Assembly (NCBI GenBank): GCA_044222065.1
Contig: JBGAOA010000063.1
Location: forward strand, 1-24,831
Source of the DNA: Candidatus Eiseniibacteriota bacterium
GTDB taxonomy: Bacteria > Eisenbacteria > RBG-16-71-46
Length of the DNA: 24,831 nt
Direction of reading: 5' to 3'
Below are positions 21,434-24,831 of the stretch, piece after piece; the first letter of the stretch is position 1; each line of letters begins with the position of its first letter. The translations under genes were made by a program, and so were the position numbers. The notes under the pieces were generated by a model. It did no database searches. It was not told the DNA's origin and was given only the letters and a program-made list of their open reading frames with translations.

Positions 21434-22240
21434 CTACTTGCCGCTGAAGTTCGGCTTGCGCTTCTCGACGTAGGCGGCGAGTCCTTCCTTCGCGTCGTCG
21501 CTCTGGAACAGCTGCTGCTGCAGTTCGCGCTCCACGGCGAGCGAGACCTCGAACGGGATCTCGGCGCCGGTCTGCACCGAGCGCTTGATGCGGCCGACGG
21601 CCTTCGCGGCCTTGTTCGGCGGGCAGAACTGCTCGGCGTACTTCTGCACCTTCTCGATGAACTCGTCGTTCGTCGCCGTCTCCCAGATCTGGTTGACGAT
21701 CCCGAGCGACTGCGCGCGCTCGAAGTCGAACGTCTCGCCCGTCACCATCAGCTCGATCGCGGTGCTCTTGTTGATGAGCCGCGCGAGGCGCTGCGTGCCG
21801 CCCGTGCCGGGGAGCACGCCGAGCGCGACCTCGGGCAGGCCGATCTTGCCCGCGCCCTTGCGCGCGATGCGCAGGTCGGCCGCCATCGCGATCTCGAGGC
21901 CGCCGCCCACCGTGTGCCCGTTCATCGCGGAGATCACGAGCTTCGGCGTCTGCTCGAGGCGGTTCAGCGTCTCGTTCGCGTGCAGGCAGAAGTAGTACTT
22001 GAACGTCGGATTGACGGTCTTGAGCATGTTGATGTTCGCGCCCGCGCAGAAGAACTTTTCCCCGGCGCCGCGCAGCACGATCACGTGCACGTTCTCGTCG
22101 AAGCGCGCCTGCAGGATGGCCTCGTCGAGGTCGCGCATCATCTCGTAGGTGTAGGTGTTGGCCGGCGGATCGGTCAGTTCGATCCACGCCACGCCGTTCT
22201 TGACCGTGTAGTTCACGAGCTTGGTCTTGGTGGCTTCCAT
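21434..22240 (-). CDS. Enoyl-CoA hydratase/isomerase (crotonase) family protein
   Basis: ATG at 22240 with a GGAGA SD. Motifs FFCAGANI, NGH.VGGGLEIAMAADLR, GLPEVALGVLPGTGGTQRL and EKRKPNF. Confidence 0.93.
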   Translation of the reverse strand: MEATKTKLVNYTVKNGVAWIELTDPPANTYTYEMMRDLDEAILQARFDENVHVIVLRGAGEKFFCAGANINMLKTVNPTFKYYFCLHANETLNRLEQTPKLVISAMNGHTVGGGLEIAMAADLRIARKGAGKIGLPEVALGVLPGTGGTQRLARLINKSTAIELMVTGETFDFERAQSLGIVNQIWETATNDEFIEKVQKYAEQFCPPNKAAKAVGRIKRSVQTGAEIPFEVSLAVERELQQQLFQSDDAKEGLAAYVEKRKPNFSGK

Positions 22241-22331
22241 CGCGGTTCTCCGAGTCGGGGTGAGCGTTGCGGCCCCAGGCCGGAGTGCGTCCGGCGAGCC
22301 GTGAGCATGCGGGTGGGTTGGAGCGCCGGGC

Positions 22332-22360
22332 AGTATAGGAAGGCGGCGCGACGGGTTCAA
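22332..22360 (-). promoter_or_regulatory. Putative sigma70 promoter of the crotonase gene
   Basis: TTGAAC-N17-TATACT on the minus strand. Confidence 0.72.
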
Positions 22361-22409
22361 CGGCCGTCCCCCGCGGTTGCGGCGCACGCTCGATGGCGGC
22401 GCGGGGGCC

Positions 22410-22449
22410 AAAAAGCATCGCGGCGCCGGTCCTCACACGGCGCCGCGAT
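22410..22449 (-). terminator. Intrinsic terminator closing the sigma54 unit
   Basis: 12-bp perfect stem (22417-22428/22438-22449) with a 9-nt loop, followed on the minus strand by GCTTTTT. Confidence 0.8.
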
Positions 22450-22507
22450 CTCTACTGGAGACCCGGGATCGAAGTACGGCCTCCGCGCGAGTTGCGCGGG
22501 GCCCCGG

Positions 22508-22666
22508 CTAGGCCGGGGGACCTCTCTCCCTGATGCCTCGGAAGCGCGGACCCTGACCGCTTCCGTCCGAATCGTGACGTCCACTTCCCTCTCGAAGGCC
22601 GGGAGCCGTCGCACGAGGGACCCGCACGCGCGTGCGGGGTGAGTGGAACATCCGATCAGGTTTCAT
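22508..22666 (-). CDS. Possible 52-aa small protein ending RGPPA
   Basis: Strong SD (AAGGAGAGG) before the ATG at 22666. However, 20 of 52 codons end in A/T, which is atypical for this window. Confidence 0.35.
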   Translation of the reverse strand: MKPDRMFHSPRTRVRVPRATAPGLREGSGRHDSDGSGQGPRFRGIRERGPPA

Positions 22667-22751
22667 GAGGACCTCTCCTTCGAGCGCGACGAGCGCTCTC
22701 CGCACCTCGGTGTGTCGGACCGCGAGCGGTGAGATGTGAGAGTCCTGAGCG

Positions 22752-22852
22752 GGGTCGAGCCACGGGCCGGCGCTTCCGCCGCGCGGGCAGCCTTCCCAGC
22801 TTCGTCGGGTCGAGCCACGGGCCGGCGCTTCCGCCGCGCAGGCAGCCTTCCC
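22752..22852. repeat. Direct repeat, 2 x 46 bp (period 55)
   Basis: 22752-22797 and 22807-22852 differ at one base (G22785/A22840). Confidence 0.95.
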
Positions 22853-22893
22853 GACCTTCTCGGCGGTGCGTCCACCGCCACGCCCTCAGCGAC

Positions 22894-22909
22894 TGCAAGA
22901 GCGGTGCCC
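22894..22909 (-). promoter_or_regulatory. Sigma54 (RpoN) -24/-12 promoter
   Basis: Minus strand reads GGGCAC-CGCTC-TTGCA versus consensus TGGCAC-N5-TTGCW, with exact GG-N10-GC spacing. Predicted +1 near 22883. Confidence 0.72.
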
Positions 22910-23079
22910 TGCGAGGGTTCGACGCGCCGGAGGCACGGGACCCGCGAAATCCGCGGTTCCGGCGCGCGCGTGCGAAACGCAGTCCGCCGGGTCCGCTGGC
23001 AGATTGCGCGTCCTGCGACACGCAGATCGCGACAACGCGAGCCGTGGGAGAAAGACCTTGAAACCCGGGGCGTGATCAT

Positions 23080-23101
23080 TTAATCGTATTTCTACGATCA
23101 A
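23080..23101. promoter_or_regulatory. Putative ArsR operator
   Basis: AT-rich palindrome TT-A-ATCGTA-N4-TACGAT-C-AA just upstream of arsR, downstream of a TTGAAA (23058-23063). Confidence 0.65.
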
Positions 23102-23147
23102 CGATCAAAGCCGCCGTGTGCGGCCTCGAACCACCCGGGGAGCACCG

Positions 23148-23456
23148 ATGCCTCCAGCCACGACGAAGCGCGCCGCGTTCCACCCGGGCGCGACCGACCG
23201 CGAGACCGCGACGATGGCTCGCGCTCTCGGCCACCCCGTGCGCGTCGCGATCCTCCGCATGCTCATCGCCCGTGGCGAGTGCGTGTGCGGAACGATCGTC
23301 GAGGCGATGCCGCTCGCCCAGTCCACGATTTCGCAGCACCTGAAGGTGCTGAAGGCGGCCGGCCTCGTGCAGGGCGACATCGACGGGCCCCGCGTCTGCT
23401 ACTGCGTTCAACCGAAGGCCGTGCAACGACTGAAGGAACTGATCGGCGCGCTCTAG
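23148..23456 (+). CDS. arsR: ArsR/SmtB family transcriptional repressor
   Basis: ATG at 23148 after GGGGAG. Motifs ALGHPVR..IL, ECVCG and LAQSTISQHLKVLK.AGLV; adjacent to arsM. Confidence 0.9.
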   Translation: MPPATTKRAAFHPGATDRETATMARALGHPVRVAILRMLIARGECVCGTIVEAMPLAQSTISQHLKVLKAAGLVQGDIDGPRVCYCVQPKAVQRLKELIGAL

Positions 23457-23474
23457 CGCCGGGAGGAAGGTGCG

Positions 23475-24344
23475 ATGGAATCGAAGACGATCGTGGTGAC
23501 CGAGACGAGCGGCTGTTGCGGCTCCACTCCCGAGAACCCGTGCTGCGGACCCGCGGCCCAGACGATCGCGCCCGGCGAGGACGCGCGCGTCGTGGTGCGC
23601 GAGAAGTACGGCGCGATCGCCGCGGGACGGCACTCGAGCGTGGGCTGCTGCGGCGCGCCCGATGATGCGAACGCGGTGCTCGAGCAGCTCGGCTACACGG
23701 CCGAGCAGGCGGCCGCGCTGCCCGAGGGCGCGAACCTCGGCCTCGGCTGCGGCAATCCGATCGCGCACGCGGCGCTCCGCCCCGGCGAGGTCGTGCTCGA
23801 CCTCGGCTCGGGCGCGGGCATCGACTGCTTCCTCGCCGCGCGCGAAGTCGGCCCCACCGGCCGCGCGATCGGCGTGGACATGACGCCCTCGATGATCGAG
23901 AAGGCGCGCGCGAACGCGAAGAAGTCGAACGTCGCGAACGTCGAATTCCGGCTCGGCGAAATCGAGCACCTGCCGGTCGCCGACGCCACCGTTGACGTCG
24001 TGATCTCGAACTGCGTCGTGAACCTGTCACCCGAAAAGCCGCAGGTGTTCCGCGAGACGCTGCGCGCGCTCAAGCCCGGCGGCCGGCTCGTCGTGAGCGA
24101 CCTCGTGCTGAAGCGCGAAATCGGCCCCGACGCGCGGGCCGACGCCGAGCTGTACTGCGGCTGCGTCGCCGGCGCTTCGATCCGCGAGGAGTACCTGCAG
24201 CTGATGCGCGACGCCGGCTTCCGCGACGTGCAGGTGCTGGAGGAGCGCGCCTACACCGTCGGCACCGAAGGCCTCGCCGAAGGCAGCCTCCAGCGCAACG
24301 CCTTCGACGCCGTCGTCTCGATCAAGGTGAGAGCCGTGAAGTAG
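23475..24344 (+). CDS. arsM: Arsenite S-adenosylmethionine methyltransferase
   Basis: Motifs VREKYG.IA, LGLGCGNP, VLDLGSGAGIDCF, GVDMT, GEIEHLP, ISNCVVNL and GCVAGA. GGAGG SD; downstream of arsR. Confidence 0.93.
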   Translation: MESKTIVVTETSGCCGSTPENPCCGPAAQTIAPGEDARVVVREKYGAIAAGRHSSVGCCGAPDDANAVLEQLGYTAEQAAALPEGANLGLGCGNPIAHAALRPGEVVLDLGSGAGIDCFLAAREVGPTGRAIGVDMTPSMIEKARANAKKSNVANVEFRLGEIEHLPVADATVDVVISNCVVNLSPEKPQVFRETLRALKPGGRLVVSDLVLKREIGPDARADAELYCGCVAGASIREEYLQLMRDAGFRDVQVLEERAYTVGTEGLAEGSLQRNAFDAVVSIKVRAVK

Positions 24345-24382
24345 GGCTCCACGCGACGAACTCCGACCACCGACGGAGCCCA

Positions 24383-24831
24383 GCGGAAGGCGACCCGACA
24401 GTCCACACGTTCACGGGGCGAATCAGCGATCCACGCGTTCATGCGGCGCAGCGGAAAGCGAGTCGGAAGTCCACGCGTTCACGAGGCGCAGCGGAAGGCG
24501 AGTCGGAAGTCCCTCTCGGGCGCCACGCGAACTCCCGCGATCAGTTACACGCGGAAGGCGAGTCGGAAGTCCCCCTCGGGCCCGCTCGCCTCCGCATCCT
24601 GCTCCGGCTCGCTACTCGGCTCCTGTCTCCGCCACTCCATGGCTCCGACACTCGCCGACGTGCCCGAGGGGGACTTCCGACTCGCCTTCCGCTGCGCCTC
24701 GTGAATGCGTGGACTTCCGACTCGCCTTCCGCGTGTAACTGATCGCGGGAGTTCGCGTGGCGCCCGAGAGGGACTTCCGACTCGCCTTCCGCTGCGCCTC
24801 GTGAACGCGTGGACTTCCGACTCGCTTTCCG
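24383..24831. repeat. Nested inverted-repeat array of the 22-bp unit GCGGAAGGCGAGTCGGAAGTCC (REP/BIME- or MITE-like), running to the window end
   Basis: Forward units at 24383 (degenerate), 24451, 24491 and 24551; inverted units at 24671, 24711, 24771 and 24811. 24452-24572 is the reverse complement of 24711-24831. Confidence 0.92.

Follow-up and report, generated by a model that had tools for sequence, protein, structure and literature searches.

The tandem repeat of a 46-nt unit at 22748–22855 of the analyzed window (the whole stretch of 24,831 nt) is probably a recent and incidental doubling of a 55-base hairpin. Under the explanation that we prefer, with our confidence evenly balanced, it is a duplication that has been tolerated within an orphan non-coding RNA of about 475 nt, transcribed from a sigma-54 promoter and acting in trans as a decoy for a protein. 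That such a transcription unit exists is reasonably supported, and decoy action is what we infer for it. The host is an uncultured sludge bacterium of Candidatus Eisenbacteria with a 4.2-Mb genome (72% GC, 94% complete); a protein at least 90% identical to the neighboring enoyl-CoA hydratase carries the Candidatus Eisenbacteria label. The repeat is located in the 900 nt of DNA that separate arsR-arsM (plus strand) from the hydratase gene (21434–22240, minus strand; Pfam ECH_1). Along the minus strand, two palindromes come first, then a sigma-54 motif, a hairpin and the two rods; three more predicted domains and a terminator-like hairpin follow. The features are as follows.

23014–23024, no strand assigned: distal palindrome TGCG-N3-CGCA, a candidate sigma-54 activator site that starts 116 nt upstream of the sigma-54 motif
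22971–22981, no strand assigned: proximal palindrome TGCG-N3-CGCA, likewise a candidate activator site; the spacing to the distal palindrome is 43 nt, or about four helical turns
22894–22909, minus strand: sigma-54 (-24/-12) promoter that matches the consensus at 10 of 11 positions, with transcription predicted to start near 22883
22410–22883, minus strand: putative whole transcript, about 475 nt (folding z -3.22, 0 of 100 shuffles as good)
22862–22879, minus strand: predicted 5' hairpin of 7 bp with a GACG loop
22804–22855, minus strand: repeat copy 1, a rod with a 6-bp closing stem, an AA/GA internal loop and a GAAG apical loop
22748–22801, minus strand: repeat copy 2, predicted to form the same rod when folded alone
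22668–22746, minus strand: predicted multi-branch domain, the closing helix of which buries the Shine-Dalgarno (SD)-like sequence 22680–22672 (z -1.0, not significant alone)
22560–22660, minus strand: predicted three-way-junction domain, the best-folding internal part (z -3.39, 0 of 200 shuffles)
22508–22666, minus strand: open reading frame (ORF) of 52 codons preceded by the SD-like sequence; unlikely to be a real gene
22410–22449, minus strand: terminator-like hairpin followed by UUUUU (z -4.54)
22332–22360, minus strand: sigma-70-type promoter of the enoyl-CoA hydratase gene, from a promoter scan; a similar one is visible in most family-level orthologs

The two minus-strand cores (22852–22807 and 22797–22752) form a head-to-tail tandem with a period of 55 and differ by a single base (U at 22840, C at 22785), in agreement with an earlier, sequence-only reading of this DNA. 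That reading also held that the two units are closed by different flanks that nevertheless pair. Both stems do appear in the minimum free energy (MFE) structure, but the flanks are not independent sequences: the linker is alignable to the sequence that precedes copy 1 (54 of 58 columns), so that the differing flanks are diverged parts of one unit. Three of the four differences fall in the linker, i.e., there is one change per 46-nt core versus three per 12-nt linker. The repeat is confined to a single locus (the next-best match in a whole-genome scan has 14 mismatches, and no third copy is present in the genome) and has no match in plasmid and phage collections, which argues against a REP, MITE or other mobile repeat. 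Tandem Repeats Finder did not call it.

Given that the genome is metagenome-assembled (131 contigs), one copy could have been written twice by the assembler, but the probability of such an artefact is practically nil. The copies are non-identical, and an 85-nt error-free contig from the independent RNA run X19 (22752–22836) spans the copy junction; thus, both copies exist outside the present assembly, and an assembly error is excluded. In addition, contigs of other runs break at points expected of a repeat, and at least half of the words of the 901-nt stretch are present in 16 runs.

A duplication of this kind is not rare in the host, contrary to the suggestion that it is unlikely to be neutral: the genome contains 37 tandem duplications with a period of 30–150 and identity of at least 37/40, 10 of which are mainly intergenic, and the set includes another one from this window. 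With short tandem duplications so common here, the repeat by itself is of minor importance. The 98% identity of the copies fits a recent duplication, which would have been tolerated because the extra module is self-contained and sits close to the 5' end of a larger RNA. Elsewhere in the window, an intergenic two-copy tandem duplication unique in the genome (1083–1222, period 70, 91% identical) is found, and the contig ends in a cluster of palindromic REP/BIME-like units (24358–24831, periods 40 and 100, 121-nt perfect inverted arms), related copies of which are present only at the end of contig C60.

Each copy is predicted to fold into one rod ending with CGGCG-GAAG-CGCCG (apical stem CGGCG/CGCCG, loop GAAG). 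The multi-stem module proposed from sequence alone is therefore wrong: the pair probability of its CUGCC/GGCGG hairpin is about 0, forcing this hairpin yields -21.0 versus -30.5 kcal/mol (at least 9.5 worse), and the U/C difference, previously assigned to the hairpin loop, sits in a 2x2 internal loop of the rod. The closing stems GUCGGG/CCCGAC and AGCUGGG/CCCCGCU (with one U-C mismatch) are both part of the MFE structure of the 108-nt piece, but their pairing is not clearly above that of random flanks, which equal it in 8% and 33% of 3000 trials (P 0.08 and 0.33). Compared with shuffled sequences, the 108-nt piece has no folding advantage (z -1.04; 31 of 200 shuffles do as well); folded singly, copy 1 has a z of -2.2 and copy 2 of -0.4. 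Within the full RNA, the copy 1 rod is predicted with pair probabilities of 0.97–0.98, and the copy 2 rod is populated only about 5%.

These results bear on the alternative that the repeat is a selected tandem module in which the two rods, each binding a ligand or a protein, would either control the SD-burying helix ahead of the 52-codon ORF or serve in trans as the binding site of a dimeric protein. The better preservation of the core compared to the linker, together with the advantage of each copy's own flanks (-32.1 and -28.7 kcal/mol) over swapped flanks (-26.6 and -25.4; a gain of 2–7 kcal/mol), hints at some selection on the repeat, a case that is weak but above zero. Moreover, the SD-like sequence is buried in the MFE structure, GAGAAGGUC just before copy 1 resembles it and could compete for the anti-SD strand, and the ORF ATG lies 228 nt behind the promoter, inside the 25–250 nt spanned by sigma-54 leaders of relatives. 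This alternative nevertheless appears rather unlikely: homologs are not found, no Rfam riboswitch matches at E up to 10, flank pairing is not significant, the copy 2 rod is sparsely populated in its context and the ORF looks non-coding. A role at the RNA level, which the earlier reading had also assumed, is plausible because the repeat is part of a transcribed, structured unit on the strand named there and because each copy gains stability from its own rather than swapped flanks. The data do not establish selection for a tandem aptamer, given the lack of homologs, the wrong multi-stem fold and the non-significant stem pairing, and a tolerated duplication accounts for them equally well.

The repeat begins about 30 nt downstream of the sigma-54 promoter, which was recognized by the -24/-12 consensus. 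Of the 29 sites that score at least 10 of 11, 27 are intergenic, versus 5 of 110 for the reversed control, as judged from codon-score gene calls; the strict pattern is not over-represented genome-wide (6 observed versus 5.8 by chance). In ten relatives, strict sites are mostly intergenic and located ahead of a same-strand gene (loci of 60 of the 93 sites examined). The host genome encodes rpoN and more than 20 activator domains. The two TGCG-N3-CGCA sites make up one of only 2 close pairs among the 129 such palindromes in the genome, but across 89 genomes the pair pattern shows no enrichment over the reversed control. In 4 of 88 family genomes (2 for the reversed control), this palindrome precedes the sigma-54 promoter of a real gene; read by eye, such genes include those for a lipoprotein and a flagellar-rod-like protein. 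A 17/19 direct repeat (22951–22969 and 22371–22389, 580 nt apart) brackets the promoter, the RNA and the terminator; none of 100 shuffles contains a match this good, but 13 of 70 comparable intergenic regions do. Farther upstream, an ArsR-operator-like palindrome (23083–23098) precedes arsR and the gene for an arsM-like methyltransferase, and is kept near the hydratase gene in many relatives.

The predicted RNA is bounded on the 3' side by the terminator-like hairpin, which a scan for the terminator consensus did not call. The whole-unit z of the RNA owes part of its size to the terminator and the repeat and weakens to -2.33 when both are left out. The three-way-junction domain was picked post hoc from 4 pieces, and 5 of 120 intergenic windows drawn at random also reach a z of -3.4. 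Parts of the stretch are present in six RNA runs, with an identical share of 0.39 in three of these. Contig coverage, for 32 of 474 pieces, comes from three RNA runs and one DNA run among 24, in the form of contigs that carry no strand, start or level and could include DNA carry-over. Two RNA runs from two studies (X18 and X19) each yield an error-free contig, 22452–22781, that ends at the foot of the terminator hairpin, and the contig of DNA run X3 continues through this hairpin. RNA run X16 covers 22467–22656 and 22669–22821 but also 22899–23135, upstream of the predicted start. Among the pieces listed, X19 has zero depth in the bins 22254–22367 and 22938–23735; uncovered bins in RNA runs prove nothing alone, and contig depth was not used to rank expression. 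The agreement of the RNA contigs with the promoter-terminator anatomy is a weak hint of a bounded RNA.

No Rfam family matches this RNA: there are 0 matches at the gathering score, and the 7 weak matches at E up to 10 are all far below the cut-off. The 6S, RNase P and tmRNA genes are all located elsewhere in the genome, so that this is not a missing housekeeping copy. A search for antisense targets gave a longest match to gene start regions of 15 nt, compared to 13–16 nt in shuffles. Cobalamin and c-di-GMP riboswitches, a kink-turn, a hammerhead, a type III antitoxin RNA and attC were considered and dropped because their defining motifs are missing.

The hydratase gene has its own promoter behind the terminator, which uncouples the repeat from that gene. 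The 52-codon ORF has a codon score of -23 on the codon model of the genome and a GC3 of 0.62. Searches for homologs of its product produced only 3 weak low-complexity matches in 88 genomes and no usable match in the Atlas, and the exact sequence is absent from the protein collection. Thus, a role in cis for the repeat lacks a credible gene, and the RNA is unlikely to be the leader of a neighboring gene.

The same ORF is the starting point of another alternative, namely that the locus is a decaying cassette: a small protein gene would have been lost, its sigma-54 promoter, leader, SD and terminator would have stayed behind, and the still transcribed remainder would now gather neutral changes, the duplication included. 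The layout of promoter, leader, SD with ATG and terminator is that of the family's normal sigma-54 genes, there is no conservation anywhere, and the gap holds different genes in different relatives. Against this, no frame, even when read through stops (as X) to allow for a frameshifted small gene, matches any protein of the genome or of the orthologous loci, the best-folding domain lies inside the ORF, and the promoter, the palindromes and the terminator look intact. On balance, decay is unlikely. In 6 of the 29 orthologous loci, as inspected by eye, arsR is directly back-to-back with the hydratase promoter, and others hold unrelated genes at this place, so that the segment of about 650 nt is lineage-specific.

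The preferred reading, a duplication within a trans-acting RNA, also has to accommodate the outcome of homolog searches, in which BLAST, covariance models and patterns all failed to detect the repeat elsewhere, the very result that the earlier reading had named as refuting its proposal. These searches covered genomes without a second member of the host genus, and in each genome a subset of the candidates was scored. When the repeat region was compared by BLAST with 40 relatives, only short chance-level matches appeared, the best of which lies inside a long coding-like run, and the 3' part of the RNA has two 30-nt matches among 40 genomes; the whole cassette is found in 0 of 200 class genomes (2 candidates scored per genome). 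One unpublished genome (G026) enters only the tallies of the 40-relative BLAST and of the orthologous loci. The three covariance models rest on one or two sequences, R2 and R3 on a single one each. R1 yields 15 weak matches in 14 of 88 genomes, all in long open frames without an upstream sigma-54 site, and matches in 2 of 150 class genomes, both within protein genes; R2 and R3 match in 0 and 1 of 88 genomes, respectively, the lone match being inside a gene. Pattern scans are equally negative: 105 metagenome loci at chance level, the best of 80 scored with R1 reaching 24.8 bits versus 82–85 for the true copies; 24 GTDB loci, 1 of them with an apical stem of at least 4 pairs and the best model match in a coding frame; and at least 120 viral loci, 76 scored with R1, with chance-level matches only.

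As a positive control, a sigma-54 RNA candidate on contig C64 of the same genome was recovered in 5 of 5 relatives, which indicates that the method sees conserved RNAs at such distances; a second control, on contig C3, was found in 1 of 5. With no detectable relative of either the hairpin or the RNA, a conserved tandem ligand-sensing module is unsupported, and, since no part has a homolog, conservation gives function no backing.

Several other sigma-54 RNA candidates are apparent in the host. The C64 candidate (about 430 nt, from 50544, plus strand; no Rfam match) is located downstream of an activator-domain gene in which the domain match shows one internal TGA. Three further candidates of 230–280 nt with terminator-like 3' hairpins (C3 86532, plus strand; C59 48123, minus strand; C35 27566, minus strand) have no Rfam matches either. 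In ten hand-picked host candidates, GAGAG occurs 19 times versus 3.1 expected and AGGTC 12 times versus 2.9; since these candidates were chosen by eye, the excess is only a lead. Alignment of the 475-nt RNA to 9 other sigma-54 candidates of its own genome detects nothing significant, and the best likeness to leaders behind sigma-54 sites of relatives has a z of 2.9 among about 66 loci, which is not significant. On host contig C37 (from 5617, plus strand), a sigma-54 promoter precedes a 21-codon Lys/Ala-rich ORF with a good SD that resembles a minimal histone-like peptide. In relative G002 (contig C17, minus strand), a sigma-54 promoter and a terminator-like hairpin downstream of it, with about 105 nt between them and no same-strand gene, make up a short sRNA candidate; an apparent likeness of our RNA to a short RNA in this relative did not hold up.

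Under the preferred explanation, an enhancer-binding activator would bind both TGCG-N3-CGCA palindromes, and sigma-54 polymerase would start near 22883, the motif being visible and the start predicted. The folded RNA would end at the hairpin and U-tract near 22410, a boundary that the RNA contigs, which carry no strand, fit. This non-coding RNA would then act in trans, most likely as a protein-binding decoy or scaffold. Among the known sRNA partners that were looked for, such as Hfq, only CsrA turned up, and it is a doubtful candidate for the partner. The csrA gene is present in 83 of 89 family genomes and, in the host, sits outside a flagellar cluster; FliW and Hfq were not found in the 94%-complete host genome, in which there are only two weaker Flagellin_N matches. 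More speculatively, and improbably on present evidence, the RNA could belong to a new, fast-evolving class of sigma-54 decoy RNAs in Ca. Eisenbacteria that grows by duplication of rod modules with re-paired stems and titrates an RNA-binding protein, possibly a FliW-less CsrA whose binding preference would be non-canonical, for sites that are purine-rich and partly paired. What deserves attention is the surrounding unit, an orphan sigma-54-transcribed structured RNA in an uncultured phylum in which almost all genomes retain CsrA; if it is a protein decoy, it would show CsrA-type control wiring in this phylum and module duplication in progress. In the literature searched, no paper on sigma-54-driven structured RNAs in Eisenbacteria was found.

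Among known systems, tandem riboswitches such as glycine, glnA and NAD-I come to mind, since here, too, a pair of structured units, almost identical to each other, lies in the 5' portion of the transcript, ahead of a buried SD-like sequence. In contrast to these, the present RNA has no Rfam match, no homolog and no credible regulated gene (the hydratase gene has its own promoter, and the ORF looks non-coding), and its copies are nearly identical.

The comparison with CsrB/CsrC and RsmY/RsmZ (PMC4005645, PMC7652899) is invited by the presence of csrA without detected FliW or Hfq. Our RNA shares with them many hairpins and a repeated unit carrying GGA. A sponge of this type, titrating CsrA under sigma-54 control and gaining two GGA sites by the duplication, is favored by the wide presence of csrA and by the GGA count (16 in 474 nt versus 7 expected from the genome rate). 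However, GGA density is ordinary for intergenic DNA (about 9 expected; the best 250-nt window, with 10 GGA, ranks about 160 of 1138 strand-regions), and in this heavily paired RNA of 72% GC the GGA sites are predicted to be as paired as the rest (mean unpaired 0.28 versus 0.29 overall). None has all three bases unpaired, and an A at -1 or -2 accompanies only about 6 of the 16, so that a sponge of the known kind seems distinctly improbable. According to PMC13443453, Eisenbacteria CsrAs are rarely predicted to be functional on the B. subtilis hag leader, with the caution that such CsrAs may have other targets; to that extent, there is room for a non-canonical sponge.

The other relevant system is CrcZ/CrcY of Pseudomonadaceae (PMC5113210, PMC6292655). 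CrcZ and CrcY depend on RpoN and CbrB, are a few hundred nt long and carry A-rich AANAANAA motifs. The RNA described here differs from them in having no A-rich AANAANAA motifs, no Rfam match and no adjoining activator gene, and in that the Hfq partner was not found in the host genome. Membership in CrcZ, CsrB or any Rfam family thus fails, and the likeness to CrcZ-type RNAs is confined to promoter architecture, with the sigma-54 promoter and the activator sites present at the motif level only. Within these bounds, CrcZ/CrcY provides the parallel to the preferred reading: a stand-alone RNA of a few hundred nt, transcribed from a sigma-54 promoter with upstream activator sites and proposed to act as a protein decoy.
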